64,000 nt of DNA, taken from Candidatus Bathyarchaeota archaeon. GTDB lineage: Archaea; Thermoproteota; Bathyarchaeia; Bathyarchaeales; Bathycorpusculaceae. Location: NCBI GenBank assembly GCA_963828195.1, contig CAWHDT010000004.1, positions 49,512 through 113,511 of the forward strand, in the 5' to 3' direction. The notes beneath the pieces were generated by a model. It searched no databases, had not been told where the DNA came from, and was given only the letters and a program-made list of their open reading frames with translations. Shown piece after piece: positions 4,253 to 27,667 of this stretch; position 1 is the stretch's first letter, and every line of letters starts with the position of its first letter. Both the position numbers and the translations under genes were made by a program.

Positions 4253-4358
4253 TTATGTTTCCTTCGCAAAAAATTTGATAATATAACTTGTCTTAATCCT
4301 ATGCCGGTTAAATAAAATTTCGGATCTTGGAGTATAAAGTCCTGAAAGACTTAACGTT

Positions 4359-5525: not shown

Positions 5526-5625
5526 TATGGCAAAAGCAAGTATTTTTCTTCGCAGAAGAATTCACTCTCGAAATCTATCAGGACATTAAATTCATTAAAA
5601 TATTCTTTCTAATATTTCAGTTAAG

Positions 5626-7721: not shown

Positions 7722-7746
7722 CTATCATCCGGCCCACGCTTTGCAT

Positions 7747-12060: not shown

Positions 12061-12735
12061 TTACTTGTAAAACACTTCTTTATTTCCAAGGTGACCCTTA
12101 GTTTCTACAATGGGTTTCGTTTGATTGCTTAACCATATCTGAGTTTCGCTTCTGAACTCTTCCACTGCCCGTTTCTTAATGTCCAAGTAATCTGAAATGT
12201 TGACAACTCTCGTTCGGTTACTTAAGAAACCAATCATTTTTTCGAATTTTGGTCCAATGCGCGAAAATTTGTGAGTGATAGAATACTGAAACACACTATT
12301 TTCCAAGTTACGTTTTTGAAGGCAACGTCTAATCACTCTGCTTGCAGATTGATGATCAGGATGCCAGTCTCGCTTTAGTGGGAAATATACTTCATCGGGA
12401 AAATGCCCTTCTAAGAAAGCAGTTACTGCTTGCTCGACTTCAGGCTCATGTTGTGAAAGAGTATAATCTTCGAAATCAAAGAAAAACAAGTTGCTCTTCA
12501 GCACACCTAAAATGGAAACGGCGTCAGTAACCTCTTTTTTTCGAATTTGCTTTATTTCTTCTGGAGTTGGGTTTGACGTTATGCTTAAAACTTTTGAGAA
12601 TGCATGCCTGCCATCAGTCATGATTACGACAAATACTTTGTAGCCTTCATTGATTCTTTTAGCTATTGTTCCTCCACAACCCAGCGTTTCATCATCGGGA
12701 TGGGGAGCAAAAAATATGGCCGTTTTCTCGCTCAT
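12061..12735 (-). CDS. PIG-L/LmbE family N-acetylhexosamine deacetylase
   Basis: APHPDDETLGCGGTI and HPDH metal motifs. Confidence 0.92.
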   Translation of the reverse strand: MSEKTAIFFAPHPDDETLGCGGTIAKRINEGYKVFVVIMTDGRHAFSKVLSITSNPTPEEIKQIRKKEVTDAVSILGVLKSNLFFFDFEDYTLSQHEPEVEQAVTAFLEGHFPDEVYFPLKRDWHPDHQSASRVIRRCLQKRNLENSVFQYSITHKFSRIGPKFEKMIGFLSNRTRVVNISDYLDIKKRAVEEFRSETQIWLSNQTKPIVETKGHLGNKEVFYK

Positions 12736-12780: not shown

Positions 12781-13899
12781 TTAACTGCTTTTTTTAAGAG
12801 AGATTTTTAGTTTTGTGGCGATGTTCTCAACGGTGTTTCCCCAAGTAACACGATCGTATAGCTCGCTGATTATTTTTTTGTGAACAAGCCGCACTTCAAA
12901 GTTTCTTCTGTAATTGTTGGTCCATTGTTTCTTGTAGGGTTCATCTCCTCTGGTCATATCGTATTCTGTGAAACCCTTTGCTATGCATTCTCTTAAAAGA
13001 AACATAATTATTAAATTTCCAACAGAGAACTCGGAGTACTTTGGAAGAAAACCCGCGAGGTAATAATACATTTTTTTATCATACTCAAACGTGTATTGGG
13101 CAGCCACGGGTTCTCCGTCTATCCTGAGAAAATAGATGCCCAACCAATTATTCCCCGCAAAAACTTCGGCTACATCCTTGTGAAAATTCCTAAAGGTTTC
13201 CTCAGCGAAGGCTCCAGGCTGACCTTCTGATTTCCACTTCAGCTCATGCAACCCGATGAAAATATTCATCGCTTCTTTAACTGAGAAACCGGCTTCATCA
13301 AATCTCTTTAGGTCTACAGTATGATTTTCCTGAATTTTTCTAACGTATCGATTTAGGTTTTGCCTCAAATTTCGGCCAAAACTCTTTCTTAGGCTGTCGA
13401 ATGTATTTGGCAGCGCAACATACGGACATAGGTTACAGACTCTTTCCTTCGTTTCAAGGTTTAAAGAGGGAGCCATAAACAGTTGTTTTGAATAATTAAT
13501 GTTTTCAGGAATCTCTTTTAGTTCAATCCAATCCCAATCTTCTTCTTCAGTAAGATAGTCTAGTATGTACCTCATGAACTCATTTTCTTTTTTTGAAACG
13601 ATAAAATTGTTATAATCTGAATGGCGAGCCCCCAGAAATTCGATTTTCTTAATTGAGCCAAAACTTGCCAGTTTGTATTTAGATAACATCAGTGGAGCTA
13701 TTCCCAAAATTTTGTTGTCTTCTTCGACTTTTAAGAGCAAAAGTTTTCTTTGTGCTCCGAAATGCTTCCACCATGTGGATAACCAATCTACTGTTAAGAA
13801 AACGTTGTTGCCAAACCGGTTTTCTTTAAGGATTTGATCCCACACGTTTCGAATACTTTCAAAATCGTCAACTTCGGTTACTTTCAATGTATCCTTCAA
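12781..13899 (-). CDS. Fem-clan double-GNAT protein (CelD/BcsL, Acetyltransf_6 type)
   Basis: FLTVDWLSTWWKHF, SDYNNF, YYYLAGF, EYDMTRGDEPYKKQW. Confidence 0.85.
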   Translation of the reverse strand: MKDTLKVTEVDDFESIRNVWDQILKENRFGNNVFLTVDWLSTWWKHFGAQRKLLLLKVEEDNKILGIAPLMLSKYKLASFGSIKKIEFLGARHSDYNNFIVSKKENEFMRYILDYLTEEEDWDWIELKEIPENINYSKQLFMAPSLNLETKERVCNLCPYVALPNTFDSLRKSFGRNLRQNLNRYVRKIQENHTVDLKRFDEAGFSVKEAMNIFIGLHELKWKSEGQPGAFAEETFRNFHKDVAEVFAGNNWLGIYFLRIDGEPVAAQYTFEYDKKMYYYLAGFLPKYSEFSVGNLIIMFLLRECIAKGFTEYDMTRGDEPYKKQWTNNYRRNFEVRLVHKKIISELYDRVTWGNTVENIATKLKISLKKSS

Positions 13900-13923: not shown

Positions 13924-14823
13924 TTAATGTTCACTGAATAAATGTAAATAGACATTAGCAGCTGTTGTTCTTAAATTATCTTTAAGGGTTTTACTTGGAA
14001 ATTGCTTCATGAAATAATCAAATTCCCCAATCGGAGAAAAATGAAAAGTGCCAATTCCTTTTTTATCTGCCAAAGCAACTGCGCCAACTGATTTCGGAGA
14101 TAAACCCACCAGTTCTGAAACTGCACTATCTGCCGCCACCACGTCTTCACTGGACATGACCATGTTCAACCGTTTGGTATGCGTCCCAATTACAGCCAAA
14201 CCATCAAGAACCACCAAATGCGTCTTTATCTCTTCATTTATTGCAACGATAGCCTCATCTAGCACCTTGTGGTAGATGAACTTATTTGGATAAGCGTTGC
14301 ATCCAAAGAAGTTTTTTAGCGCACAAGAAATCTTAACCCTTTGCATATATTTCGGCTTAGGAACATTTACCACCAGATCAGCCTCGGAAAACAATTCAGG
14401 TATATGAAACTTGAAGTCTTTACCGTCAAATGTTCTGTTAACGATTTTGTATTTCTCTTCAGTCAAGTTAACCATGTTTACCTTTTTTTCCGTTGCCATC
14501 TTATTGTACCCAAGCATACTAAACGCGTTTTTGCATTTCATGGCTGAAGCATCCGATTCAACAACAAAAAATTCTGAAGCATCCGTGTTTTCCCTGAAAA
14601 CATCAATCAGGGCTCCTACAAACCGGGGGTCAGTCACTTCCCCCGTTGACGGATGATAATAATAGCACATATTTGGCTTGATTACGATTTTTTTAGACTT
14701 TCTGCCAAAATCAAATTTAATTAAATCAAGCGATTCCTTAATGGCTTGTTTTACTGCTTCAGGTTCACAGTTTTTAGTACGCACAAAACTAACAAGGCTC
14801 AAAGTGTATTTCCTCCAGAACAT
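13924..14823 (-). CDS. DUF362 domain protein (paralog of 9023-9955)
   Basis: IVIKPNMCYY, VNVPKPK, SCALKNFFG. Confidence 0.85.
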   Translation of the reverse strand: MFWRKYTLSLVSFVRTKNCEPEAVKQAIKESLDLIKFDFGRKSKKIVIKPNMCYYYHPSTGEVTDPRFVGALIDVFRENTDASEFFVVESDASAMKCKNAFSMLGYNKMATEKKVNMVNLTEEKYKIVNRTFDGKDFKFHIPELFSEADLVVNVPKPKYMQRVKISCALKNFFGCNAYPNKFIYHKVLDEAIVAINEEIKTHLVVLDGLAVIGTHTKRLNMVMSSEDVVAADSAVSELVGLSPKSVGAVALADKKGIGTFHFSPIGEFDYFMKQFPSKTLKDNLRTTAANVYLHLFSEH

Positions 14824-15813
14824 TTACGCCATTACTTGAGCGTTCCTATATGCTAACGAAATTGCTTGCAAACCGAGAAGTCCTTCTTCGCCGGACGGTT
14901 GCGGTTGCTCATCCTTTTGTATGCAATTAACAAAATGTTGCAGTTCCAAATAACGTGAAGTTTCTTTAGCCAATCCAAATTTTCTTGCAATTCCTGCCCG
15001 TATTATGCTTGAAGTGCTGACTGGAGCCAATTGAACTGATGTGTTTTTGGCTGTACCGCAAACTTGAAGTGACGAGATGAAGCTTTTTGAAAACCAACCA
15101 GCCTTAACAGTTCCAATAGCGCCATTCTTAAATTTTAATGTGCAAGTCGCTACGTCCTCCAAATCCGTTCTGAACAGGTATTTGAGGACGCTACTTGCAG
15201 ATTCAACTTCACCGAAAAACCATATTAGTATGTCAACGAGGTGCGAGCCTAAATCTAGCAAGGCGCCTCCTCCCGTTAGCTCTTTGTCAAGCCACCACGA
15301 AGGCACTTTGACAGGTCCTATGCTGTCACTCCTGGGAGAGAACGGTCCACCGCTTATGTTCGTAGCTTCCGCAATTTGCACTTCACCGAAATAACCATTG
15401 ACTATTTGATCATGAAGCCTGATAACAAGAGGATCAAACCGCATGTTAAAGCCAACCATTAACTTTACGGAGTTTTTCTGGACTGCAGACAGAATTTTCT
15501 CGCCCTCCTCGACATTTCTTGCAAGGGGTTTTTCCAAAAGGATATGTTTTCCTGCTTCCGCCGACTTCACCGCAGCTTCTTGATGAAGAAAATTCGGCAA
15601 ACTGATGATGACCCCGTCAATATTCGCATCTTTGAGGAGATCTTCATATTTTTCATAGACGTCTTTGACTCCATATTTTTTTGCGGTATTTCTGGCCTTC
15701 GGAGATAAGTCTGCTACAGCTTCAATCTTGAATTCTTTTAACTTTAAAGAACTGCTAAGTAGGGATTTGCCTTCAACGCCAAGACCGATAAGTCCCAAAT
15801 TAATCGTTTTCAA
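14824..15813 (-). CDS. Gfo/Idh/MocA oxidoreductase (paralog of 9955-11085)
   Basis: GLIGLG, LEKP, GGGALLDLGSHLVD. Confidence 0.9.
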   Translation of the reverse strand: MKTINLGLIGLGVEGKSLLSSSLKLKEFKIEAVADLSPKARNTAKKYGVKDVYEKYEDLLKDANIDGVIISLPNFLHQEAAVKSAEAGKHILLEKPLARNVEEGEKILSAVQKNSVKLMVGFNMRFDPLVIRLHDQIVNGYFGEVQIAEATNISGGPFSPRSDSIGPVKVPSWWLDKELTGGGALLDLGSHLVDILIWFFGEVESASSVLKYLFRTDLEDVATCTLKFKNGAIGTVKAGWFSKSFISSLQVCGTAKNTSVQLAPVSTSSIIRAGIARKFGLAKETSRYLELQHFVNCIQKDEQPQPSGEEGLLGLQAISLAYRNAQVMA

Positions 15814-15951: not shown

Positions 15952-16695
15952 TCATGCCTGACTTTTTTGAGTTTCTTTCAGTTGAAGAAGTGCGTATATT
16001 CTTATTGCCGCCCACTCTTCTTTAAAGTGAGCATCATACTGGCCTATATCTATTATCTCATAGTTGTGATCAAACAACAACTTTAGCATGGCATTGTAGC
16101 CTTTATAGTGTGGTGAACTGATTGTAGCAAGCTCATCTACGAATGGGCATGTTAGAGTAGGCACGTCAATGTTTTTTCTGTTTGTCTCAAGGAAAAATAA
16201 GCGGGGTTTGTTAACATTCAGTAATTTATCCATTAAAGATACAAAAGATGTTTGACTGCATATATCAAATGCTCCGAGAAGAAGAATTGCGGAGAACAGA
16301 CGATCTGACCCTGATTGCAGATTTAACTTTTCAAAAGAAGACGAATGTACCCAGGTACCTTTTGGATAAATTTGTTTAAGGTCTTTAATTGCTTTGGCGC
16401 TGTTGTCAAAACCTGTTATATTGTATCCCGATTCTAAAAGTGGACCTGCCAACGGAGAATACCCACACATGACATCCAAAAAATTGTCGCCCGGGTTAAG
16501 ATAGGGCTTTATTATGTTAAGAAGAGTTTCTCCGCGGTTGTTGACGTTTTTTAAATATGGATATTCATATCGAGAAGTGATTTTGCGCAAAACAGTTATC
16601 GCTGGCTTTTCTAAATGTAGAAAACGCAATGTCTTTTGCGCTGAATGTTTAACGCTCTGCTTGTTCATTGTTTTCCTTTCCGATGCCCTATTCAT
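15952..16695 (-). CDS. Class I SAM-dependent methyltransferase-like protein
   Basis: FLDVMCGYS motif I, ITGFD motif II; close paralog at 23642-24349. Confidence 0.75.
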   Translation of the reverse strand: MNRASERKTMNKQSVKHSAQKTLRFLHLEKPAITVLRKITSRYEYPYLKNVNNRGETLLNIIKPYLNPGDNFLDVMCGYSPLAGPLLESGYNITGFDNSAKAIKDLKQIYPKGTWVHSSSFEKLNLQSGSDRLFSAILLLGAFDICSQTSFVSLMDKLLNVNKPRLFFLETNRKNIDVPTLTCPFVDELATISSPHYKGYNAMLKLLFDHNYEIIDIGQYDAHFKEEWAAIRIYALLQLKETQKSQA

Positions 16696-16755: not shown

Positions 16756-19700
16756 CTAATTGGAAAAGGGGGAGGTTACGTCATTTTTCCGTTTTTTTAA
16801 TGACAGTGCAACCGCGCCAAAGGTCACAAGCACAATTGCTAACAAGACTAAAATGAATGCTACAGTGCTGAACTCTGGTACTGTTGGGGTTGGAGAGGGA
16901 GATGCAGTTACAATCGGAGTAGGAGACGGAGACGCAGTTGGAACTGGAGTTGGTTTTGGAGTTGAGACTGGAGTAGGTGAAGGGGTCGAAGTAGGTGAAG
17001 GAGTTGGAGTAGGTGCGACAGATACAGTAATGGTAGATGCAGTAGAGTTCACCGCGATACCCGTATTGTCAGTTACTTGGAGGATAAAGTTCCAGTCGCC
17101 AACAGCAGTAGAAGATGAAATTGAAAAGTTGTAGAAAGACGAAGTTGCACCGCTAATAGAAGAGTATGAGAGTGCACCAGGAGCCTTGCTAAACCATTGA
17201 TAGGTGTAGGGCGAAGTGCCAGTTGCCAAAGCAGATGAAGTTACATTGACTGTTTGCAGTGTCTGGCTTTGAACGATTGTGCTAGGAGTAGGCGTCAACG
17301 AAGGAGCAGCCAAAACAGAATTTACCGTAACAGAAGGCGAAGCGGATTGAGGCGAAGTTATACCTAAGCTGTCAGTAACAGTTGCCGTAATTAATGGGGA
17401 ACCAGAAGCACTAGCAGAATAAGTATAGGTTGAAGCCGTTTTGCCGCTTTGAGCTACGCCGCCAACATACCATTGGTATGATGAATAACTACCTGAACCT
17501 CCAGTGGGATTAGCAGTAAATACATTGGACTGACCAACGTCCAAAGTCAATGAAGTAGGCGTTATAGAAACAGTTGGAGAACTCACCATAACAGTGGCTG
17601 CAGTAGAGTTCACCGCGGCACCCGTATTATCCGTCACTTGAAGGATGAAACTCCAACTACCGGTAGCCGTTGAAGCCGAAGTGACAAAACTGAAACTTCC
17701 TAAGTTTGGACCCTCCTTAACGTAACTTCCGCCTGGAGCCTTCTCAAACCATTGATACGTATATGGCGAAGTGCCAGTTGTAACAGCAGTAGAAGTCAAA
17801 CTTGAAGTCTGGCTCTGATCAACAGCGACAGGTGAAGGAGAAACTGTGGGAGCAGCCAAAACAGAATTTACCGTAACAGCAGGAGCAGAAGACTGAGGCG
17901 AAGTTACACCCAATAAACTGTCAGTAACAGTTACCGTAATTAATGGGGAACCAGAAGCACTAGCAGAATAAGTATAGGTTGAAGCCGTTTTGCCGCTTTG
18001 AGCTACGCCGCCAACATACCATTGGTATGATGAATAACTACCTGAACCTCCATAAGCAATAGCAGTGAACATCTCAGATTGGCCAGCATCCATTGTCCAA
18101 GAAGTAGGCGATACAGTAACAGTTGGAGTGACGGTCACCATAACAGTGGCTGCAGTAGAGTTCACCGCGGCACCTGTGTTGTCAGTCACTTGGAGAATAA
18201 ATTTCCAGTTGCCAGCAGTCGTAGACGAAGAAGTCACAAAGTTGTTGTTGGACGAAGTTGCGCCACTTATAGATGTGTAAGATAATGCACCGGGGGCTTC
18301 ACTGAACCACTGGTACGTGTAAGGAGTAGTACCTGTTGTAACCGCGGTAGAAGTTAAACTACAAGGCTGACCCCGACCGATGATACTTGGATTAGGCGAT
18401 ACAGTCGGAGCAACCAAGGCAGAGTCAACAGTTACAGTTGCAGAAGCAGAATTCAGCGTTGATCCGCCTCCAGTGGGGGTCAATTGAAGCTGGAAGCTCC
18501 AGCTGCCCACAGCTGTAGAAGCGGAAGTCACAAAGTTATAGCTAGACGATGTTGCGCCGCCTATAGGTGTGTAAGAAGATGCGCTTGGAGCCTTACTAAA
18601 CCATTGATATGTGTAAGGCGAAGAACCCGTCACGGCAGGAAAAGTCAAACTTGAAGTTTGACCCTGATTCACTGAGCCAGGCGAAACGGATACGGTGCGA
18701 CCAGCTAAAGTTGAGCCATCTGGTATTACTGAGGCTATTTGGGACAGGGCATTGCCTATAAATATCTCTCCCAAGCCAGAATCATACGCAGCGCCATAAG
18801 GAACCATTCCCACTCCGATATTTTCAATTACGGAGTTACCGCTGTCTGATATCACCGAAACAGAGCTAGAAAACTCGTTGGCAACGAATATTTCGCCCAA
18901 GGCAGGATCATAAGCCATGCATTCAGGTTGGGTTCCGACGTCTATGGGCGTACCAACCACGGTGTTAGTACTGTCAGATATCACCGAAACCGTGCCGGCC
19001 CAATAATTGGTTACGAATATCTCGCCCGTGCCAGAATCATAAACTACACCATCCACGCCAGACCCCGGACTTCCCACAGTTATGGTTGTGATAACAGTAT
19101 TAGTGCTATCCGATATTACAGAGACCGTGCCGGAATTATAGTTGGCGACAAATATTTCACCTTTGCCAGAATCATAAGCTAAACCATATGGGTAGGTTTG
19201 CACGGGTATGGTTGCCACCACGGTATTGGTAGCATCATTAATCACAGAGACAGAGTTGCCGCCTGGTTGCGTAGATGAAGACTCATTTCCATAATTGGTA
19301 ACGAATATTTCGCCTTTTCCGGAATCATAAGCTACACATGAGGGACCGAGACCAGTGGTTATGTTTGCTACCACTGCATTGTTGCTGTCTGATATCACAG
19401 AAATCGAGTTGGTTGTATAGCTGCTTACGAATATTTCGCCCTTAGCAGAATCATAAGCTACGCCATAAGCCCAGTTTCCTACAGGCAAAGTCGCAACCAC
19501 CTCATCATTACTATCAGATATAACCGAGACAGTGCCGGCTCCAGCATCAGCCACGAATATTTCGCCCTTACCAGAGTCATAAGCAACATCTTGGGGCCAG
19601 CTTCCCACGGGCACCGATGCAACCACAGTATCCGATATGATTGAGACAGAGGTAGACCCAGAGTTGGCAACGAATATCTCACCCAGATAAGAATCGTAAG

Positions 19701-20616
19701 CTTCGCCAGAAGGATCAGAACCCACAGAAATAGTTCCGCCGGTTGTAAGCACTGCATTTGTGCTGTCAGAAATTATCGAAACAGTTCCAGAGCCACTGTT
19801 CGCCACGAAGATCTCACCCGCGCCAGAATCATAAGCCACACCAGAAGGACCGCTTCCAACGGATGGAGAAGCAATCACGGTATTAGTGACGTCAGATATC
19901 ACTGAGACAGAGCCAGACCCTTGATTAGCAACGAATATTTCGCCCTTAGCAGAATCATAAGCTAGACTTTCAGGATCAGATCCCACAGAGATAGGTGTAC
20001 CAACTACGGCATTAGTGCTATCCGATATCACCGAAACACTCCCAGAGCCACCGTTGGCGACAAATATTTCGCCCTTAGCAGAATCATAAGCTACAGCAGT
20101 AGGATCAGTTCCCACAGTAACGTTTGCCACAACCGTATAAGTGCTAAGCGAAATCACCGAGACATTGCCTATTCCGGAATCAGCCACGAATATTTCGTTT
20201 TTGCCAGAATCGTAAGCCAAGCCTGAAGGACCGGCGCCGGCACCCAAAGACACATTTGCCACAACTGCATAAGAGTAATCATCTAGCGCGTAAACCGTGT
20301 TGGACCCAGAGTTTGAAACGAATACCTGATTTCCAGAATCCCAAACTGCACCAATGGGATCTGATCCCACTGACACGTTCGCAATCACCGCCTCAGTGCT
20401 GTCCGATATTACAGAGACGTTGTCGGAGCCGCTATTGACAACGAATATAGTCCCCTTGTTAGAATCGTAAGCTACGCCCGCAGGATTGGTTCCTACTGTT
20501 ATGGTTGCGTTTATTGCGGTGCCGGAGGCTATATCCACATGGGTTATTAAAGTGGCAAAAATCATAATGAAAATAATGAAAACGAATCCTAAAAGTTTAG
20601 AAAACTTTACTTTCAT
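16756..20616 (-). CDS. Cell-surface protein: YVTN beta-propeller repeats, Ig-like repeats, Pro/Thr linker, PEF-CTERM-type anchor
   Basis: Signal peptide; about 14 repeats of AYDSxKGEIFVAN.GSGSVSVISD; repeated YTYQWF/WxFILQVTD modules; C-terminal VPEF-TM-KKRK. Confidence 0.9.
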   Translation of the reverse strand: MKVKFSKLLGFVFIIFIMIFATLITHVDIASGTAINATITVGTNPAGVAYDSNKGTIFVVNSGSDNVSVISDSTEAVIANVSVGSDPIGAVWDSGNQVFVSNSGSNTVYALDDYSYAVVANVSLGAGAGPSGLAYDSGKNEIFVADSGIGNVSVISLSTYTVVANVTVGTDPTAVAYDSAKGEIFVANGGSGSVSVISDSTNAVVGTPISVGSDPESLAYDSAKGEIFVANQGSGSVSVISDVTNTVIASPSVGSGPSGVAYDSGAGEIFVANSGSGTVSIISDSTNAVLTTGGTISVGSDPSGEAYDSYLGEIFVANSGSTSVSIISDTVVASVPVGSWPQDVAYDSGKGEIFVADAGAGTVSVISDSNDEVVATLPVGNWAYGVAYDSAKGEIFVSSYTTNSISVISDSNNAVVANITTGLGPSCVAYDSGKGEIFVTNYGNESSSTQPGGNSVSVINDATNTVVATIPVQTYPYGLAYDSGKGEIFVANYNSGTVSVISDSTNTVITTITVGSPGSGVDGVVYDSGTGEIFVTNYWAGTVSVISDSTNTVVGTPIDVGTQPECMAYDPALGEIFVANEFSSSVSVISDSGNSVIENIGVGMVPYGAAYDSGLGEIFIGNALSQIASVIPDGSTLAGRTVSVSPGSVNQGQTSSLTFPAVTGSSPYTYQWFSKAPSASSYTPIGGATSSSYNFVTSASTAVGSWSFQLQLTPTGGGSTLNSASATVTVDSALVAPTVSPNPSIIGRGQPCSLTSTAVTTGTTPYTYQWFSEAPGALSYTSISGATSSNNNFVTSSSTTAGNWKFILQVTDNTGAAVNSTAATVMVTVTPTVTVSPTSWTMDAGQSEMFTAIAYGGSGSYSSYQWYVGGVAQSGKTASTYTYSASASGSPLITVTVTDSLLGVTSPQSSAPAVTVNSVLAAPTVSPSPVAVDQSQTSSLTSTAVTTGTSPYTYQWFEKAPGGSYVKEGPNLGSFSFVTSASTATGSWSFILQVTDNTGAAVNSTAATVMVSSPTVSITPTSLTLDVGQSNVFTANPTGGSGSYSSYQWYVGGVAQSGKTASTYTYSASASGSPLITATVTDSLGITSPQSASPSVTVNSVLAAPSLTPTPSTIVQSQTLQTVNVTSSALATGTSPYTYQWFSKAPGALSYSSISGATSSFYNFSISSSTAVGDWNFILQVTDNTGIAVNSTASTITVSVAPTPTPSPTSTPSPTPVSTPKPTPVPTASPSPTPIVTASPSPTPTVPEFSTVAFILVLLAIVLVTFGAVALSLKKRKNDVTSPFSN
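17303..18052 (-). repeat. Near-identical ~200-bp intragenic duplication (about 17303-17502 vs 17849-18052)
   Basis: Shared DNA encoding GGSGSYSSYQWYVGGVAQSGKTASTYTYSASASGSPLIT. Confidence 0.85.
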
Positions 20617-20996: not shown

Positions 20997-22157
20997 CTAA
21001 ATATCCTCTATTTCATACGAGTCAGAAAACAATTTCTTCTTCAGAGATGATGGCACTACATCGTAGAAACGTGCAAGAGAGTCAAGAATCCCGTCATAGC
21101 ACTTTACAAAATAAAAAGATTCATCAGATTCGCAGCCCCTCTTCAGCTTAATTTCCGCCATGCCTGTACCATAATAGATTTCTTTGATGCCGTTTTCAAT
21201 TGCCCATTTTATTGGAGCGTAATAAACCAAATTAAGATAAACATAATCATTGTTTGAGCAGGCTGAATAATCGAAGCCACATTTAAAACCTTCTAAAGTT
21301 TCTTTATGCTGCATGCATAAGGTAAAGCCAACAATTTTTTCGTTCTTTTTGGCCAGAAATAACAACGTTTTATCTCCAGCGTGCCTACTTAAACTTTTAA
21401 AGAAAGAAGCATCGTAGTAAGGTGATTGCCTTCTGTTATATTTGAAGTAAAGATTTGAGTAGAGATTTGACAATACCAAAGACAGCTGCTCGAATTCAGA
21501 TATGGCTTCAATTTTAACACTGTTTTCGCCCGATTTTTTCAACTCACGTCTAACATTTTTACGAACTTTATAATTTAGGCTCATTAAATATTCGTCGAAA
21601 GTAGTCCACCGGATTTTGATGGTATAAGTTTTTCTCCAAGGTAATTTGCGGTATCCGAAATCATTTAAACTATTCATGAGATTTGCTTCTGAAGCCGAAA
21701 CACAGATAAAACAACTAATTGAGATTCGTCCCGTTTTGCATAAGCAATCGATTCCTTCAGATATCTTACCTATAATTAGGCTTTTATCATAGTTTTCATC
21801 GCAAAGAATTCCGCTACGCCAACAGCCAGCTGGAGAATGGCAAAGTAATGCATGGCGATTGTATAAATTGAGAAAGTCCGCAAAGGTCAATATTTTTGTT
21901 AAGAATGGGATTAATTTTGGTGTGTTAGCGAAATAGGTATCTTTTTGGTCAATGAAACATGGAGTAAAAGCTACCGGATTTGCGCCACAAAAAACAGCTA
22001 CGTAGTATACATCTTGTTTCATGATGTTTTCCATTGTTTTAAACCATTCATAAGTGCAATGAGGGTCAGTTGAAAGGGAATTAACGAAACTTTTGCCCAA
22101 GATATCCACGGATTTTAAGATTTTGAAATTCAATTGTTCAGTCAACTTGACTACCAT
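20997..22157 (-). CDS. FemAB-like (DUF482-type) GNAT-fold protein
   Basis: FDEYLMSLNYKVRKNVRRE and YLNLVYYAPIKWAIENG..IYYG....IKLKRG resemble the FemAB_like C-terminal motif. Confidence 0.8.
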   Translation of the reverse strand: MVVKLTEQLNFKILKSVDILGKSFVNSLSTDPHCTYEWFKTMENIMKQDVYYVAVFCGANPVAFTPCFIDQKDTYFANTPKLIPFLTKILTFADFLNLYNRHALLCHSPAGCWRSGILCDENYDKSLIIGKISEGIDCLCKTGRISISCFICVSASEANLMNSLNDFGYRKLPWRKTYTIKIRWTTFDEYLMSLNYKVRKNVRRELKKSGENSVKIEAISEFEQLSLVLSNLYSNLYFKYNRRQSPYYDASFFKSLSRHAGDKTLLFLAKKNEKIVGFTLCMQHKETLEGFKCGFDYSACSNNDYVYLNLVYYAPIKWAIENGIKEIYYGTGMAEIKLKRGCESDESFYFVKCYDGILDSLARFYDVVPSSLKKKLFSDSYEIEDI

Positions 22158-22197
22158 CGTGAAAGATATTTTCGGTAAGAAAGTTTGCCTCTTGATT

Positions 22198-23433
22198 TCA
22201 AAAACTGACCCGTGGAGGACTCCACGCGCGGCTTTTGTCTTTTAACATGTTAATTAAGCCCAAAGGAGAAAAAGCAAGTCTAAATAGAAAAGGCGCAGGA
22301 TCGTTTACTTCAAATAAATCGTAAAACAAACCAGGTTCATAAAACTTAAGCCAACTGGCAAGCAACTTCAAATCGCCTTTCTGCAAATTTGAGTTTGCTG
22401 AGGAATCCTTGATTAGCTTTACAATGTACAGGAGGTCTTGCTCGAGATATCTGCCTTTAACACCCTCTTTATAGTTGAATGTCCCCTTGACGTCTCCATC
22501 CATTGCTATTTTGTACAATAAATAAGGAAAGTCCACCCCAGCTTTGACTGCAACACAAAGTGATCCCCAGAACCGCGGATTTATCTCCAGCAGTTTGGGA
22601 GTATTGTCGCGAGGGTCAAGTCTGAACTCGACTTCAGCTATTCCGTGCCAATTCAGTGATTCAAGAAGCTTTTCAGTATACATCTTCATGCGAGGGTTCA
22701 GCGGAGCACTTTCGCGGTAACAACTGTTGCCTCCACTAGGAGGCCAAGCTCGGTTAACTTTTATGCAGCAGAAGGCTCTAGGTTTTCCATTGTTGTATAC
22801 TGCAGCGACTGAATAGTTGATTCCTGGAACATATTCTTGAATTAACGGATATGGAAAATACTGGTTTATGCTGTTGTAAGTTGCAATAAGTTCCGAAGCA
22901 GAGTTGACGAATCCGCCCCGCCTATCAAAAGCGCGATCTTTCTGCCACACCACTGACCAACGTGGTTTAACAACGCAGGGGTAGCTCATTTCCTGAGCAG
23001 CAAGTTTTAGTTCCGCTGAATTTTGAACAAAACGAGTTTGTGGAATAGGCACGCCATTTTCCATCGCCAACTTAAGCGTCGAGCTTTTATCAAAACATGA
23101 CAGAATTGAATCGTGACTGGCGATGGGCAGTTTAACGTAAGGAGTTAATCTGTCTCTGTTTTTGGAAATCGGCACCAGAGATGCTTCAGAAAGCGGAAAA
23201 TACATATCAAACTTTGAGTTTTTAACTATTTTTTCAACCGCTTGAGCATATTCTTTTTCAAGGCTAGTTGATGGGACTAAAAATTGTTTTCGACAAAATT
23301 TGGAAAAACGGGAAGTATACACGGGAAAGTTTGTCAGGACAGCTGTGTTTATGTTCCTTTTTCCTAGAGACCGTATGATTGGAAGGCTGATGGGACAATA
23401 TCCTTCAGCCACTAAGACGCCGTCGCTTTCCAT
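22198..23433 (-). CDS. ATP-grasp ligase (carboxylate-amine ligase type)
   Basis: DKSSTLKLA..GVPIP, YPCVVKP, IQEYVPG, VEFR.D, LLEINPRFWGS; ATG at 23433 preferred over TTG at 23457. Confidence 0.9.
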   Translation of the reverse strand: MESDGVLVAEGYCPISLPIIRSLGKRNINTAVLTNFPVYTSRFSKFCRKQFLVPSTSLEKEYAQAVEKIVKNSKFDMYFPLSEASLVPISKNRDRLTPYVKLPIASHDSILSCFDKSSTLKLAMENGVPIPQTRFVQNSAELKLAAQEMSYPCVVKPRWSVVWQKDRAFDRRGGFVNSASELIATYNSINQYFPYPLIQEYVPGINYSVAAVYNNGKPRAFCCIKVNRAWPPSGGNSCYRESAPLNPRMKMYTEKLLESLNWHGIAEVEFRLDPRDNTPKLLEINPRFWGSLCVAVKAGVDFPYLLYKIAMDGDVKGTFNYKEGVKGRYLEQDLLYIVKLIKDSSANSNLQKGDLKLLASWLKFYEPGLFYDLFEVNDPAPFLFRLAFSPLGLINMLKDKSRAWSPPRVSF

Positions 23434-23465
23434 GTTAATCAACCAATAAGGATTCAATTGTTAAT

Positions 23466-23539
23466 TGGAGCCAGGGGTTGGATTTGCACCAACATAAACG
23501 GCTCTGCAGGCCGTCGCTTTCGTACTCAGCCACCCCGGC
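23466..23539 (-). tRNA. tRNA-Cys(GCA), atypical D and T loops, encoded CCA (copy 2)
   Basis: Folds as GCCGGGG UG GCU-GAGUACGAA-AGC G ACGGC-CUGCAGA-GCCGU UUAU GUUGG-UGCAAAU-CCAAC CCCUGGC U CCA; U73 discriminator; no intron. Confidence 0.92.
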
Positions 23540-23571
23540 GACATCATTTTTTAATCCGCGGAAGATCCAAC

Positions 23572-23586
23572 ATTATAATTTTCTGG
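23572..23586 (-). promoter_or_regulatory. Putative BRE/TATA upstream of tRNA copy 2
   Basis: Minus strand reads CAGAAAA-TTATAA about 35 nt upstream of G1. Confidence 0.45.
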
Positions 23587-23641
23587 GCTTAAAGCCGTTA
23601 AAGCCACGTCGGGAAACAATATTTTCTAAATAATAAGCAAG

Positions 23642-24349
23642 CTAAATAGCTATTGATTTGGGTTTCTCAGCTAGAATTGCGTATATCCTCATTGTTGCCC
23701 ACTTTTCTTTAAACTGAGCATCATATTGGCCGACGTCTATTACTTCGTAATTATGATCAATTAGTAACTTTAGCATCGCGTTGTACCCTTTAAGGTGTAC
23801 AGAGCGAATTGTCCCAGATTCCTCTATGAATGGACTGTCAATTGTGGGTGCCTTTTCGATGCTTCTATTTGTTTCCAGAAAGAACATGCGGGGTTTGCTA
23901 ACACTCAAGAGTTTGTCGATTGAAGATACGAAAGCTTGTTGACAACATAGCTCGAATGCTCCGAGAAGAAGAAAGATTGAAAATTGTCGTTCTTCGTCAG
24001 GTTCGGTTTTAAAGCTTCCATAAGAAGAAAGTACCCACTTTCCTTCTGGATAAATTTTTCTCAAATCTTTTATCGCCGTGCGATTATCGTCAAATCCGGT
24101 TATATTGAATCCTGACTTTAGCAATGGCTTCGCCAACGGAGAATAGCCACACATTATATCCAAAAAATTGTCTCCGGAATTAAGATACGGCTTTATTATG
24201 TTAAAAAGAGTTTCGCCCCTTAAACTAACGCCTTTCAGATAAGGATATTCGTATCGGGAGGTAACTTTGTTTAAAATCACTAAGGCAGGTTTTTCTAATC
24301 TCAAAGTTTGTAAAGCCTTATGGCCAAAATTTTTTATTCCTGAGCCCAA
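23642..24349 (-). CDS. Class I SAM-dependent methyltransferase-like protein (paralog of 15952-16695)
   Basis: FLDIMCGYS, ITGFDD; shares TSRYEYPYLK and RGETL with the paralog. Confidence 0.75.
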   Translation of the reverse strand: MGSGIKNFGHKALQTLRLEKPALVILNKVTSRYEYPYLKGVSLRGETLFNIIKPYLNSGDNFLDIMCGYSPLAKPLLKSGFNITGFDDNRTAIKDLRKIYPEGKWVLSSYGSFKTEPDEERQFSIFLLLGAFELCCQQAFVSSIDKLLSVSKPRMFFLETNRSIEKAPTIDSPFIEESGTIRSVHLKGYNAMLKLLIDHNYEVIDVGQYDAQFKEKWATMRIYAILAEKPKSIAI

Positions 24350-24416
24350 ATTTTATTTACCCCCTATAATGCCTCGGTTACATTAAAAGTTTGGTTATAA
24401 ACGATTTTTAAATTAA

Positions 24417-25529
24417 TTATGAAGATTTTGCTACGGAAAGACGCTTTCCAAGAGTGTTAGTCAGTGGAGAAAATACATCCTTTTTAGTTATAAAATTGTA
24501 AACGAGTGGAACAATTCTTTTTTTGATAGCTCTAATCTCAAGGTTATGCCTTATCAAAGTATTCCAATTTTGCTTGTAGGATTCATCGCCTCTCATGAAA
24601 TCGAATTCATTTAAGCCATTATCGATAGAATTTTTTATCGAGTATAAGAAGAGAAGATGCCCTAAATGGTAATCAAAGTATTTCGGGTCAAATCCTGTAA
24701 GATAGTTAAACATTTTATTTCTGTATTTGAATGCATAAATTGCTGAAACAGGTTGATTGTTTAGTGTAAGAAAACAAAGATTCAACCATCCCCTTTCGGC
24801 GAAAGACCTGGCAACGCTTAAGTGAAAATCACGGAATTTTGGGTCTGCAAAAGCTCCAGCGCTGTTTTCCGACTGCCACTTCATTTGGTGTAGATTAAAA
24901 AATGTCTTCATGGCCGTATCAAGGGTATCCAAATCGTTATGAATATAGAAATTAACTTTGAAATCATTTTGTAGCCTTTTGTCCCATCGCCGCATATTTC
25001 TCCGCCAATTAGAACCTAAGCCTTGAAAGTAAGCTTCAAACTTATTTGGCAAGATGATATATGGACAAATGTTGAGATTTCTTTCCGCCAATTCTAGTTT
25101 TTTCCCTGAACAAGTCTTCAGAGCCTTTATCGTGTCGGAGTCTTCTGGAACATCTTCAAATTCGATGCAGTCCCACTTTGAGCTTGCATGATTTGCGTAA
25201 TCCATCATTAGCTTAGCGCACTCTGCCTTTTTGTCCGCCAAAAGAAAAGTTTGATAGTCGGCTGCTGGAGTTCCTATGAACTCCATTTTTGTTAGTTTGA
25301 GTCCAGCTAATTTATATTTAGAACGCATCAACGGAGCCGCTGCAACTAGTTTTTCGTCGTCGCTAACTGTTATTAGACTGAATATCCTTTCGTCGCCGAA
25401 GTGCTTCCACCATGTTGACAGCCACTCCCACGTGAGAAATATGTGGTTATCACCGCTTCTTTGAAGAGCGTCGGCCCATTCAGTTTTATAATTCAAAAAC
25501 TGCTCAAAAGATAACTCGGCTACTTTCAT
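24417..25529 (-). CDS. Fem-clan double-GNAT protein (CelD/BcsL type, paralog of 12781-13899)
   Basis: FLTWEWLSTWWKHF, ADYQTF, YLTGFDP, EFDFMRGDESYKQNW. Confidence 0.85.
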   Translation of the reverse strand: MKVAELSFEQFLNYKTEWADALQRSGDNHIFLTWEWLSTWWKHFGDERIFSLITVSDDEKLVAAAPLMRSKYKLAGLKLTKMEFIGTPAADYQTFLLADKKAECAKLMMDYANHASSKWDCIEFEDVPEDSDTIKALKTCSGKKLELAERNLNICPYIILPNKFEAYFQGLGSNWRRNMRRWDKRLQNDFKVNFYIHNDLDTLDTAMKTFFNLHQMKWQSENSAGAFADPKFRDFHLSVARSFAERGWLNLCFLTLNNQPVSAIYAFKYRNKMFNYLTGFDPKYFDYHLGHLLFLYSIKNSIDNGLNEFDFMRGDESYKQNWNTLIRHNLEIRAIKKRIVPLVYNFITKKDVFSPLTNTLGKRLSVAKSS

Positions 25530-25628
25530 TTAAAATTCAAATCCTTTTTTTGAGTGAAGATCAGATTTTTCGACTTGGATGCACATCTTGAAACTCCAAC
25601 ACCCGAAACATGAAGCAATAATTGCTGT

Positions 25629-25702
25629 TGGAGCCAGGGGTTGGATTTGCACCAACATAAACGGCTCTGCAGGCCGTCGCTTTCGTACTCAGCCACCCCG
25701 GC
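25629..25702 (-). tRNA. tRNA-Cys(GCA), atypical D and T loops, encoded CCA (copy 1)
   Basis: 74 nt identical to 23466-23539. Confidence 0.92.
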
Positions 25703-25795
25703 TCTTTTTTGGAATTGATTAACAATCAGCAATCAGTATCCAAAAAGCTGCTGTTTTGAAAAATGTGAACTTTTCCAGCAATGTTTGACTGCCAA

Positions 25796-26395
25796 TTATG
25801 CAGTCATGTTTAGCCATAAGCTGACAAATCTTTGATTATACTGGAAAGCGTTAGCTGTATCATTAAAAATCCAAAGTTCAAAGAAGACGTTTCCGAAAAA
25901 GCCGTTATTTTGGGGATCAAATGCAACGGTTGTTTGGCTTAGACTTAATGGGAAACCGTTAACGATGATGTTTTGCATGTCTACTTGATTAGGGTTATTT
26001 TGATCAAGTTGGTACTGTAAAGAAAAGCTGATGGGGAGTTGCAGTGACTGATTATTAGCAACGCAAAATGGGATATCAACTAAAGACGGCAGATTGCTGC
26101 TTGTACCATTGAAACTGTCCGGAGCCGATTGCGTTTCGTTTCGGAATTTTACTTCGATCTGATAATAAGCAACGGACCCTATATGATTGTTAACATTAAG
26201 ATATAATGAGTAATTTTGAGCTGCTTCAACGTTGTAAGGATATGTGGCATTGTGGTAAGCCCCAAAGATCGATAATTCCGTTAAGGGCGTTGGCGCTGGG
26301 GCTGCGGCAAGTTGCTGAATTGCAGGTGAGGCAACAAACAACGCTAAAACGACAGTTGCGACAAGTAAGAGTGTTCTGTATTGTCTGATAGCCAT
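25796..26395 (-). CDS. DUF1616-like membrane-anchored protein
   Basis: N-terminal TM, TELSIFG, YPYNV, YLNVNNH, C-terminal VSLWLNMT. Confidence 0.7.
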   Translation of the reverse strand: MAIRQYRTLLLVATVVLALFVASPAIQQLAAAPAPTPLTELSIFGAYHNATYPYNVEAAQNYSLYLNVNNHIGSVAYYQIEVKFRNETQSAPDSFNGTSSNLPSLVDIPFCVANNQSLQLPISFSLQYQLDQNNPNQVDMQNIIVNGFPLSLSQTTVAFDPQNNGFFGNVFFELWIFNDTANAFQYNQRFVSLWLNMTA

Positions 26396-26869
26396 TCAAG
26401 TCTTCCTCGGTTTTCGATTCAATTTAATCCAAACAGCTGTGCCTGCACCTAAGATAGCCACAGAGCCAATTATGGAGAAAATAGTAACCATGAATTTTTG
26501 ATTGTCATTGTTATTGGCGTTTTGCTGCAGGGCTGTAGCTTGGGAGCTAAAGCTGTTTAACACGTTTTGGCTTTGAGTCGCATAATTATAAGCTGCATTG
26601 TAGTCATTGCTTGCGTAAGCTAATTGAGCCTCAGACATTAAACCAGCAGCGTCGTTAAGAGTAACCATTAAAGAGGTTACGTTTGCTCCTGCCGATTGCG
26701 CTTGTTTAGCTGCATCATAGCAGCTTTTGAAGTTGTTTTGTGCTGAAGCAATGGCTGTTTGGGCGCTATTTTGTTGAGCGAAAACAGGAGAAACAAACAA
26801 AGCAACAGCTATAAAAAAGATTACAAAAGCTATAGCGCAAGTCTTTAAGCCTTTAATCAAGTTGAGCAC
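26396..26869 (-). CDS. Hypothetical exported helical protein with C-terminal TM
   Basis: Signal peptide, Ala/Gln-rich helices, TM plus basic tail. Confidence 0.7.
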   Translation of the reverse strand: MLNLIKGLKTCAIAFVIFFIAVALFVSPVFAQQNSAQTAIASAQNNFKSCYDAAKQAQSAGANVTSLMVTLNDAAGLMSEAQLAYASNDYNAAYNYATQSQNVLNSFSSQATALQQNANNNDNQKFMVTIFSIIGSVAILGAGTAVWIKLNRKPRKT

Positions 26870-26894
26870 CGTTAAAAATCAGGTCACAGAAAAA

Positions 26895-27236
26895 TTAGGT
26901 TGATTGTGAGTCTGATAGGAATTGTTTAATTGGGCACAATTCTTCTAAAGCTTTCTTTTTGGTGGAAAAATCGTAAAGGTGCTTTTCCATGGTTTTGCTG
27001 CATCGAGCGTATTCTTTGTAAGCATCTAAATATTCATGTCCTTTGAAGGTTAATTTGTAGCGTTGATTATTATCTTCGAATGTTATAAGCGAAGCATCTA
27101 TTATTTCGGTTAGATAACGTTGCAAAACCTTGTAGCTTAAGTTAGCTTGATACATTATCTGGGTTTTTTTAGGGTCCTGACTCGCAACGTTTAGAATGTC
27201 AGCTATTATGTCTAACCTATCTCGATAATTACCCAC
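26895..27236 (-). CDS. Winged-helix transcriptional regulator
   Basis: YRDRLDIIADIL...KTQIMYQANLSY...YKLTFKG; GTG start at 27236 preferred. Confidence 0.85.
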   Translation of the reverse strand: MGNYRDRLDIIADILNVASQDPKKTQIMYQANLSYKVLQRYLTEIIDASLITFEDNNQRYKLTFKGHEYLDAYKEYARCSKTMEKHLYDFSTKKKALEELCPIKQFLSDSQST

Positions 27237-27283
27237 GGTTTGCGTTCTCCTAAAAATCAAATAAAAACAAAAAATTTTAAACT

Positions 27284-27667
27284 TTAAGCGTGCAGCCAGC
27301 CTCTGCCGTTTTTCCTTAATTGATGTTTCTCCTTTTTTTCTTCAAAAGGCTGTTGGGCTAACTTTTTTCTTTGCGGTTTCTGAGTGGTGATGTTAGTTTT
27401 AATAAATTTGGTCCATCCGCCAACCTGAGGGTCAGGAGGGATATATCTTTCTGCGTTCAAGACTTCATGTTCTTCTAGGATTTCCTTAAAGTTCAGGGCT
27501 TTGAAGTCTCTGGTTGCATGGATTATTGTGCCTTGGTCGATGAACAATTGATTGTAGCTATTGAGCGCTATGCCTTCAGCTCGAACTTTGTCGTCGTACC
27601 TTTCGCGCCAAAGTTTTTTCCATTCTACTTTTAATTCTTCCACGAATTCTTTTTGGTTTAGCGACAT
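27284..27667 (-). CDS. Hypothetical protein
   Basis: 127-aa ORF with GGAGG SD; first gene of the minus-strand locus. Confidence 0.7.
   Translation of the reverse strand: MSLNQKEFVEELKVEWKKLWRERYDDKVRAEGIALNSYNQLFIDQGTIIHATRDFKALNFKEILEEHEVLNAERYIPPDPQVGGWTKFIKTNITTQKPQRKKLAQQPFEEKKEKHQLRKNGRGWLHA

Follow-up and report, generated by a model that had tools for sequence, protein, structure and literature searches.

Why would a glycan locus in an archaeon carry tRNA genes of its own, and why would the loops of those tRNAs depart from the norm of the genome? We asked this of a 64,000-nucleotide stretch of DNA from a soil archaeon, a Candidatus Bathyarchaeota (hereafter the window; contig C4:49512-113511), in which two identical tRNA-Cys genes with altered D and T loops lie among genes for GNAT-fold transferases, an ATP-grasp ligase and glycosyltransferases. 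The genome that carries the window (G000) comprises 2.83 Mb at 44% GC in 9 contigs; other labels beginning with G denote related genomes and those beginning with L denote fetched loci (L021 is a locus of G004, L022 of G026 and L066 of G179). L031 comes from a "Candidatus Bathyarchaeum sp.", and relatives in culture are known (PMC10477458). What we describe is a Bathyarchaeia amino-sugar/glycan modification cluster that carries its own tRNA-Cys lineage. We consider the odds about evenly balanced that this tRNA-Cys is dedicated to the cluster and serves as donor for Fem-type transferases, which would acylate an amino sugar after its deacetylation.

Two divergent tRNA-Cys genes in a glycan locus

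We called tRNA genes in the window using ARAGORN and Rfam RF00005 (gathering score 29). Two were found, and neither method detected any other tRNA in the 64 kb. These two genes and the enzymes on which the argument turns are as follows, all on the minus strand.

25629..25702 (-): variant tRNA-Cys(GCA), copy a (ARAGORN; Rfam 59.2 bits; no D-loop GG, U54-G55-C56)
24417..25529 (-): Acetyltransf_6 (PF13480) double-GNAT (Pfam 1.8e-32)
23642..24349 (-): class I S-adenosylmethionine (SAM) methyltransferase (Methyltransf_25 18.8 bits, below cut-off; PDB 3sm3 1.2e-5; Atlas 0.97)
23466..23539 (-): variant tRNA-Cys(GCA), copy b (ARAGORN; Rfam 59.2 bits; identical to copy a over 74 nt)
22198..23457 (-): ATP-grasp ligase (ATPgrasp_Ter 1.8e-12, ATP-grasp_3 3.1e-10; PRK12767-like in NCBIfam; PDB 2pn1)
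20997..22157 (-): FemAB_like (PF04339) double-GNAT (Pfam 1.5e-24, plus Acetyltransf_6; 3.9% Cys)
12781..13899 (-): Acetyltransf_6 double-GNAT adjoining the PIG-L gene (Pfam 1.5e-30)
12061..12735 (-): PIG-L family de-N-acetylase (Pfam PIG-L 99.4 bits vs 28.2)

An earlier note, made from the letters of the window, had read the minus-strand order as tRNA, GNAT, methyltransferase, tRNA, ATP-grasp ligase and FemAB-like GNAT, and had placed these genes inside a glycosyltransferase locus with a third GNAT at 12781. Pfam confirmed this order, and the third GNAT and the glycosyltransferases (GT2 at 3296, 5626, 7747 and 11151; GT4 at 6537) are where the note had put them. ARAGORN, Rfam and the sequence itself likewise bore out its description of two identical tRNA-Cys genes with cysteine identity and odd D and T loops. 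The D loop reads AGUACGA, the anticodon loop CUGCAGA with G37, the T stem GUUGG/CCAAC (U50-A64, U51-A63) and the T loop UGCAAAU (U54, G55, C56), and both copies have U73, an encoded CCA and a 4-nt variable loop. The canonical elbow (G18G19 with U54-U55-C56) is absent from this variant. The duplication that relates the two copies covers the 74 nt of the tRNA alone, with unlike flanks. Around copy a, at 25703-25745 and 25600-25628, the 5' leader and 3' trailer contain inverted repeats such as ATTGCTG ... CAGCAAT; these repeats also occur in L021, L030 and L122 with both arms changed between loci, and they may represent a processing helix or the relic of a repeat.

To place these loops against the norm of the genome, we compared the 36 intron-less tRNAs that ARAGORN predicted in G000. 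A D-loop GG was present in 34 of them, only the two variants being without it, and positions 54-56 read UUC in 27, UCC in six, AUC in one and UGC in the two variants alone. This is more than a chance occurrence. The loop variants are therefore not the lineage norm, a possibility that the earlier note had raised against its own proposal. The separate canonical tRNA-Cys that it had proposed to look for was found on another contig, at C5:397519-397594; its D loop contains a GG, its variable loop measures 5 nt and its T loop reads UUCAAUU. Canonical tRNA-Cys genes with normal loops were also present in G004, G026, G124, G179, G114 and G296 (7/7 genomes checked, G000 included), and the canonical gene is near-identical throughout the genus. 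The six tRNAs with UCC (Glu, Asp, Asn, Val-GAC, Thr-GGU and Sec) have U54-C55-C56 in a UCCAAAU or UCCGAAU T loop, so that one tRNA in six of this genome has C where U55 (pseudouridine) is usual. The tRNA-Sec gene among them lies at C3:100933-101016 on the minus strand (L125:334-419; ARAGORN; Rfam RF01852 65.8 bits vs 47), so this Bathyarchaeon may use selenocysteine.

The variant tRNA is linked to one rare enzyme cluster

BLAST with the variant against 41 relatives located close copies in G004, where two are separated by 3.6 kb, and in G026, a member of another family. A protein search with the ATP-grasp ligase across all species genomes identified seven loci in Bathyarchaeia and a distant eighth in Heimdallarchaeota. 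ARAGORN predicted the variant tRNA-Cys in four of the seven; L026 and L030 hold mismatched copies at the equivalent spot (36.8 and 35.5 bits by Infernal), and L028 holds a degenerate tRNA remnant that scores 41 bits with the covariance model described below and nothing with Rfam. The Heimdallarchaeota locus (L032, ATP-grasp 29% identical) had neither a tRNA nor other cluster genes by tblastn, and it was excluded from the cluster tally.

We aligned 10 distinct cluster tRNA-Cys copies (alignment A1); the covariance model built from this alignment (R1) was applied to a draw of 151 genomes of the family. Matches of at least 87 bits occurred only in G000 (97.6 bits, twice), G124 (93.2), G179 (93.0) and G114 (87.7), and all of them sit inside the homologous cluster. 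A second copy in G114 is degenerate (72.2 bits), and canonical tRNA-Cys genes score about 65-76 bits under the same model.

We also approached the linkage from the enzyme side, a less biased test, by searching for the GNAT at 12781-13899, which is the most broadly conserved GNAT of the cluster, in 401 genomes of the class. This family is rare, with a match at 1e-60 in 26 of the 401. Outside G000, G026 and G114, all matches were covered by 24 loci, each taken with about 10 kb of sequence to either side; among these loci, tRNA-Cys genes occurred in homologous clusters alone, namely three already known and that of G296. None of the other 19 loci, where paralogous GNATs stand in different contexts, contained a tRNA-Cys. 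In G000 itself, ARAGORN detected no tRNA in the roughly 10 kb to each side of a paralog that is 50% identical to this GNAT (C8:40909-42015, plus strand). Altogether, 14 homologous clusters were assembled, of which 12 hold at least one tRNA-Cys at the same place, one holds a pseudogene (L028) and one holds none (G414). The earlier note had asked for linkage in other genomes, and the same enzyme cluster with its tRNA does recur in other genera and families. G55 is common to every cluster copy except that of G296, and it spans at least two families and many genera.

Metagenomes independently replicated this picture. We scanned them with an IUPAC pattern that runs from the anticodon arm through the G55 T loop and recovered 26 stretches, two of them from one contig. 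Cluster genes lay beside the tRNA in 22 of the 26. At least 4 kb was visible downstream in nine stretches, seven of which had a Fem-type GNAT; in L110, a gene matching Pfam FemAB (PF02388, 2.4e-15) directly follows the tRNA. The variant was seen outside a cluster setting only on a few short or ambiguous contigs (L105, L101 and L120; the tRNA of L105 follows hemB at the contig end).

Selection on a chargeable tRNA-Cys

We next assessed whether the cluster copies behave as functional tRNA genes. In the 10 aligned copies, standard pairs fill 92.4% of pair cells, compared with 28-53% in slid controls. Four pairs are changed on both sides, including 51:63 (U-A in three copies, C-G in seven), the covariation score was reached by 0 of 500 shuffles, and RNAalifold recovers the cloverleaf unaided. 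The anticodon GCA, the discriminator U73 and G13.A22 are invariant in 10/10 copies, the first two being identity elements for cysteinyl-tRNA synthetase (CysRS), whereas variation is greatest in the D loop. This variability also removed support for an elbow compensation by C18-G55 and G19-C56 pairs, which we had considered. The cluster tRNAs form a lineage of their own, in which the variable loop measures 4 nt and the T stem reads GU(U/C)GG; identity is 83% within this lineage and 75% to the canonical tRNA-Cys, whereas the linked proteins have fallen to 55-65%. Together, the pairing, the compensatory changes and the invariant cysteine identity argue that the cluster tRNA has long been under purifying selection as a chargeable tRNA-Cys.

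The tRNA is expected to carry cysteine, not phosphoserine, because G000 encodes one full CysRS (503 bits) and no phosphoseryl-tRNA synthetase (SepRS) was found in it (best TIGR00470 match 47 bits against a cut-off of 381). On the same scores we rejected charging with phosphoserine, an option that the earlier note had left open and that now appears unlikely. A second CysRS-like gene lies directly after a PrxQ-like peroxiredoxin gene at C5:234635-235879 on the plus strand (L034:1498-2748). Its 416-aa product scores 309 bits with TIGR00435 against a cut-off of 340, covers positions 1-403 of the 466 in the model, and is 37% identical to the full CysRS; it keeps HIGH and KMSKS, and "WNIQDAAIV" stands in place of the canonical "WHIECSAMS" segment. 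We considered this truncated paralog as a dedicated synthetase and rejected it, since it is unlinked to the cluster and does not co-occur with it (present in three of five cluster-bearing and four of five cluster-less genomes, that is 7/10 checked). A translational boost for cysteine-rich cluster proteins was rejected as well: 16 of 17 cluster proteins have less than 2% Cys (genome mean 1.14%), the FemAB_like protein being the only cysteine-rich one.

Models of two GNATs are closest to aminoacyl-tRNA-dependent transferases

We predicted structures for two of the three window GNATs with AlphaFold and matched them using Foldseek. The model of GNAT 12781-13899, built from a 40-sequence alignment (pLDDT 89.1, pTM 0.88), was closest to Weissella FemX (1e-12, TMq 0.60-0.62) and S. 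aureus FemX (TMq 0.63), followed by FemA, Sba18/Sbb17 and MprF; the first acyl-CoA enzyme, VipF, came at rank 13 (TMq 0.36). The model of the FemAB_like protein at 20997-22157 (pLDDT 84.3) was closest to Sbb17/Sba18 with streptothrisamine (9wqx, 9wqw and 9wqy; TMt 0.78-0.80, at 12-14% sequence identity), which their PDB titles call aminoacyl-tRNA-dependent peptide synthases. FemX (matched at 1e-13), FemA and MprF came next. Both modelled GNATs thus have a tandem GNAT fold nearest to solved Fem proteins, and the comparison with FemX that the earlier note had proposed placed both next to FemX or other aminoacyl-tRNA-dependent transferases.

The C-terminal GNAT domain lacks the canonical acyl-CoA pyrophosphate-binding motif, [QR]xxGx[GA], in 39 of 40 homologs in alignment A2 and in 13 of 13 in alignment A3; all three window GNATs are likewise without it. 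In G026 and G114, the gene after the ATP-grasp ligase matches both Pfam FemAB (4.3e-14) and S. aureus FemX (1.6e-7). Through the "RWKREW" segment of this bridge protein in G026, K319 of GNAT 12781-13899 (in "PYK", invariant in 40/40 homologs) lines up with the "FKK" segment of S. aureus FemX ("AFKKVW"), a position that we take to be that of K305 in Weissella FemX. The available part of a 2026 review gives K305 as the single catalytic lysine of Weissella FemX (PMC12945691). The Fem link of the window GNATs comes from structure and from the G026 bridge protein. PF13480 and PF04339 proteins may be users of aminoacyl-tRNA.

Other genes of the cluster

The remaining annotated features around the core, all on the minus strand, are listed below (Pfam, unless stated otherwise).

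25796..27667 (-): upstream module (DUF1616-like membrane protein 25796-26395, unknown 26396-26869, HTH_45 winged-helix protein 26895-27260, unknown 27284-27667)
16756..20616 (-): large NHL-repeat / PKD-like protein, variably associated with the cluster
15952..16695 (-): further class I methyltransferase, paralogous to the one at 23642-24349
14824..15813 (-): GFO/IDH/MocA oxidoreductase (best NCBIfam match archaeal UDP-GlcNAc 3-dehydrogenase, 144 bits, below cut-off)
13924..14823 (-): DUF362 protein, partner of the oxidoreductase at 14824-15813
11151..11918 (-): GT2 glycosyltransferase
9023..11085 (-): second pair, DUF362 (9023-9955) and GFO/IDH/MocA (9955-11085)
3296..8916 (-): flanking glycan genes (GT2 3296-4252, GH5 4359-5525, GT2 5626-6540, GT4 6537-7721, GT2 7747-8916)

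We characterized the conservation of these genes among the related clusters. The number of double-GNAT proteins with a Fem-type fold reaches three in the cluster. The GNAT at 24417-25529 has orthologs of 76-84% identity in L021 and L026-L030 and is particular to the form of the cluster found in this genus. Orthologs of the GNAT at 12781-13899 occur in most clusters at 55-77% identity, and G296 and G414 have a related GNAT that is 41-42% identical. Among the clusters examined, the PIG-L gene adjoins the GNAT in G000, L026-L031, G179 and G114 and is one gene off in G296 and G414; its best NCBIfam match is BshB1 (77.5 bits against a cut-off of 182.5), and MshB scores 28.4 against 224. Orthologs of the ATP-grasp ligase are 63-83% identical in related clusters. 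Its listed open reading frame (ORF) starts at a TTG 8 nt after tRNA copy b, and the true start may be an ATG about 40 nt downstream. Both window methyltransferases match one and the same gene in L026-L030. The upstream module is conserved and lies upstream of the tRNA in most loci. The NHL/PKD-like protein, probably a surface protein, is present in G004 and is not found at the equivalent position in L026-L030.

In sister clusters there are in addition genes for a hisC-like aminotransferase and a lysA-like decarboxylase, joined in some cases by two methyltransferases or a radical SAM enzyme. In G179, a radical SAM/SPASM enzyme lies between two Fem-type GNATs (L066:8388-9389), a position that hints at further tailoring chemistry. 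The tandem pairing of DUF362 and GFO/IDH/MocA genes, seen twice in the window (9023-11085 and 13924-15813), recurs throughout the related clusters and is suggestive of an enzyme with two components that modifies sugars. A family of proteins of about 300 aa sits directly beside the cluster tRNA in G026 (L022:8544-9473) and at L065, L066, L067, L099, L102, L108, L109, L117, L123 and others, usually paired with GFO/IDH/MocA and 65-87% identical across families. It is not part of the cluster form found in the window; no match was found in Pfam, NCBIfam or the PDB, and all Atlas matches were to clusters named "hypothetical protein", the majority of them bacterial. Two genes of G004 are broken: the counterpart of the GNAT at 24417-25529 falls into ORFs of 147 and 212 aa (L021:11138-12254), and the decarboxylase into ORFs of 288 and 185 aa (L021:14637-16026). 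These splits may be frameshifts, pseudogenes or assembly errors in a metagenome-assembled genome that is 71% complete.

A proposed route and the observations against it

In the route that we propose, the single full-length CysRS would charge the cluster tRNA, which retains GCA, U73 and G13.A22. The PIG-L enzyme would expose a free amine on a sugar of the N-acetylglucosamine (GlcNAc) type, and the neighbouring Fem-type GNAT would move cysteine from Cys-tRNA onto that amine. The other Fem-type GNATs, the ATP-grasp ligase and the methyltransferases may then extend or tailor the substituent, with the hisC-like aminotransferase and lysA-like decarboxylase perhaps contributing in sister clusters, and the glycosyltransferases would assemble the glycan. 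By analogy with S. aureus tRNA-Gly, the altered elbow (no G18G19, G55) may bias the tRNA away from the ribosome. We infer both the diversion of the variant tRNA from translation and the amino-sugar acceptor. A stronger form of the proposal holds that this is a true non-proteinogenic tRNA-Cys embedded in an operon, kept off the ribosome by its elbow, whose sole job is to provide cysteine for Fem-type transferases; the product would be a cysteinyl-amino-sugar, either a thiol on a surface glycan or a small thiol resembling bacillithiol or mycothiol. We entertain this stronger form only tentatively and regard it as doubtful.

A number of observations weigh against the proposed route. Several concern whether the cluster needs its tRNA. 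The cluster of G414 (family f7) is present without a tRNA; the copies in L026 and L030 have mismatches at 29:41 and C50.A64, plus U37; and no CCA is encoded in the L027 copy. All of these clusters, and L028 as well, retain intact enzyme ORFs despite the decay or absence of the tRNA; the tRNA is therefore dispensable and an optional helper at most, and the housekeeping tRNA-Cys would have to suffice. That tRNA can probably substitute for it, which would explain the decay. Two metagenome contigs may show the tRNA apart from the enzymes: L109 places a G55 tRNA-Cys among glycan genes, yet its 10.6 kb of visible downstream sequence holds no Fem-type GNAT, and L123 has none in 4.7 kb.

Others concern the elbow. 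At the usual place in its cluster, G296 (family f6) has a tRNA with a canonical UUCAAAU T loop, alongside a second tRNA-Cys elsewhere in the genome; the odd elbow is therefore not universal. Six translating tRNAs of G000 carry C55 (none carries G55), so position 55 is flexible in the lineage. A GG occurs somewhere in the D loop in G026, G124, G179, G114 and L029a, off the aligned G18G19 position. Of the "non-proteinogenic" loop features claimed in the earlier note, then, those of the window copies stand and G55 holds in all clusters but that of G296, and the state of the D-loop GG varies among relatives. Its claim of a T stem weak for EF-Tu fared less well. The pairs U50-A64 and U51-A63 are indeed present in the window. 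The argument fails as a family trait because 51:63 covaries between U-A and C-G and because the canonical tRNA-Cys itself has A49-U65/U50-A64, and pair 49:65 is G-C in all 10 cluster copies. As described in the available part of PMC4052509, weak elongation-factor determinants at 49:65 and 51:63 are bacterial rules, which may not apply to aEF1A.

The remaining points concern the enzymes. A PDB sequence search with the three window GNATs and with the family profiles gave no match to a solved Fem protein, and the window GNATs match PF13480 and PF04339 only, not Pfam FemAB (PF02388). Brucella BspF, a PF13480 protein, is linked to protein crotonylation in the accessible portion of the literature on it, and NCBIfam names it a crotonyl transferase, a name that we take to imply an acyl-CoA donor.

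Alternative explanations

The linkage could have a simpler origin, in that an ordinary extra tRNA-Cys, either translational or nearly neutral, travels with a horizontally exchanged glycan island and owes its loops to relaxed constraint. The cluster is patchy, with the variant in 4 of the 151 genomes drawn from the family; copies have decayed in L026, L028 and L030 and in the second copy of G114, G414 has none, the G296 copy has normal loops, and C55 in the six translating tRNAs indicates that a T loop without U55 is tolerated. All of this would fit such a passenger. A neutral copy, however, would not hold four compensatory changes, its anticodon and U73 while the linked proteins diverge to 55-65% identity, and the recurrence of G55 across at least two families and many genera indicates maintenance rather than random decay. 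The cluster is not rich in cysteine, so there is no evident translational reason for the linkage, and the tRNA sits about 2 kb inside the upstream edge of the conserved unit rather than at an island boundary. We consider this explanation unlikely.

The tRNA might instead act in cis, as an RNA-processing element that shares a transcript with the operon, is excised by RNase P and tRNase Z or by way of a flanking helix, and so sets mRNA ends and couples downstream expression, with the released tRNA a by-product. Its placement fits, since it always lies on the coding strand with an ORF just after it (at 14 nt in G026, at 29-32 nt in G004 and at 8-40 nt for the ATP-grasp gene of the window), the second copy falls at a junction of gene modules, and the leader and trailer are complementary in four of the "a" copies (-12.7 to -19.3 kcal/mol). 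A cloverleaf would suffice for such a role, yet GCA, U73 and G13.A22 are kept in 10/10 copies, and conservation is lowest in the D loop, which forms the elbow used by processing enzymes. The leader-trailer pairing is also weak or missing in L026, L027, L029a, L106 and L113 and goes unused in the minimum-energy fold, and we regard a processing role as quite improbable. Less probable still, to the point that we give it very little credence, is that the copies are relics of site-specific integration or recombination anchors at swapped glycan modules. Paired copies do flank variable inserts (GNAT and methyltransferase in G000; GT4, GNAT and an unknown gene in G004; aminotransferase and methyltransferase in G114), and short inverted repeats lie beside some of them. 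Against this, whole 74-nt tRNAs are duplicated rather than 3' halves, their flanks are unrelated, no ORF annotated between 1870 and 31471 has an integrase-family Pfam match, the tRNA lies within the conserved unit, and relics would not retain compensatory stem changes. No rival accounts jointly for the retention of cysteine identity, for the compensatory changes and for a linkage that is strict and to a rare family of enzymes.

Relation to known systems

Use of aminoacyl-tRNA by GNAT-fold transferases with dedicated tRNAs is known from bacterial cell walls, lipids and antibiotics. A close parallel is FemXAB of S. aureus and S. epidermidis with its non-proteinogenic tRNA-Gly isoacceptors. The S. 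aureus non-proteinogenic tRNA-Gly has weak T-stem pairs and has lost G18G19, a loss proposed in the available part of PMC4052509 to disfavour use by the ribosome. The window copies share with this type the loss of G18G19 and of the canonical T-loop sequence. As in staphylococci, a Fem-fold double-GNAT goes with an extra isoacceptor that has lost both elements and exists beside a normal isoacceptor (PMC4052509, in the part available). Unlike the staphylococcal system, ours is in an archaeon, would use cysteine rather than glycine, and has a glycan or amino sugar rather than peptidoglycan as its presumed acceptor; the tRNA gene lies in the biosynthetic operon and is dispensable in some lineages, the weak EF-Tu pairs of the T stem are inconsistent, and the window enzymes belong to PF13480 and PF04339, not PF02388.

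Sbb17 and Sba18 share the GNAT fold and move an amino acid from aminoacyl-tRNA to an amino-sugar amine, and Orf11 is likewise an aminoacyl-tRNA-dependent GNAT-fold enzyme that acts on an amino sugar, as given in the part of PMC12945691 available. Unlike our cluster, the Sbb17 and Sba18 systems are bacterial antibiotic pathways, and the words "tRNA gene" occur 0 times in that part of the review (PMC12945691).

The proposed logic, deacetylation of a GlcNAc derivative followed by addition of cysteine to the free amine, is also that of the low-molecular-weight thiols. In mycothiol and bacillithiol synthesis, a GT4 enzyme acts first, then a PIG-L deacetylase and then a cysteine ligase (MshC or BshC). 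The best NCBIfam matches of the window PIG-L enzyme are to proteins of these pathways, BshB1, BshB2, Mca and MshB, all below their cut-offs. Here the cysteine step would fall to a tRNA-using Fem-type transferase, not to MshC or BshC. We found no linked MshC-type ligase (the CysRS paralog, on another contig, scores 183 bits against 485 for MshC; BshC was not searched for), and the many glycosyltransferases favour a polymer rather than a small thiol.

Bacterial exosortase-A (PEP-CTERM) exopolysaccharide loci offer a further resemblance to our clusters, in that both combine a Fem-like protein and a decarboxylase (a PLP enzyme in the bacterial loci) within a polysaccharide locus. The window GNATs weakly match TIGR03019, "FemAB family XrtA/PEP-CTERM system-associated protein", far below its cut-off, and the decarboxylase of the sister clusters matches TIGR03099, "exosortase A system-associated decarboxylase", at 126 bits, also far below cut-off. 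We know of no tRNA gene in such loci, and a full-text literature search found no characterization of the chemistry of their FemAB protein or decarboxylase.

The earlier note had been aware of no comparable system described in archaea. Our full-text literature search, with most subscription journals and supplements outside its reach, agrees: it returned no Fem-type or tRNA-dependent glycan system in archaea and no cluster-linked tRNA-Cys. The word "archaea" does not occur in the available part of the 2026 review of aminoacyl-tRNA-dependent enzymes (PMC12945691). The system that we propose is of a known kind, a Fem-type transferase with a dedicated isoacceptor, and is new in its domain of life, its amino acid, its glycan context and the presence of the tRNA in the operon.

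Implications

In its stronger form, the proposal would give archaea, to our knowledge, their first Fem-type aminoacyl-tRNA-dependent pathway, and no dedicated tRNA with a purely non-translational role would have been known before outside bacteria. If the proposed route is correct, non-translational use of tRNA would extend to archaea. It would also provide a testable donor substrate for the large and uncharacterised Acetyltransf_6 ("CelD/BcsL") and FemAB_like families, and the related clusters would form a natural series, from intact through mismatched and pseudogene to absent, for the gain and loss of a dedicated tRNA. Even under the rival explanations, a divergent tRNA lineage co-inherited with a biosynthetic operon across families is unusual. 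For the Bathyarchaeia, among the most abundant archaeal classes of sediments and soils, the route would predict a thiol-bearing cysteinyl sugar, and the cluster is suggestive, though not proof, of an archaeal ability to attach cysteine to sugars with a charged tRNA taken from translation.

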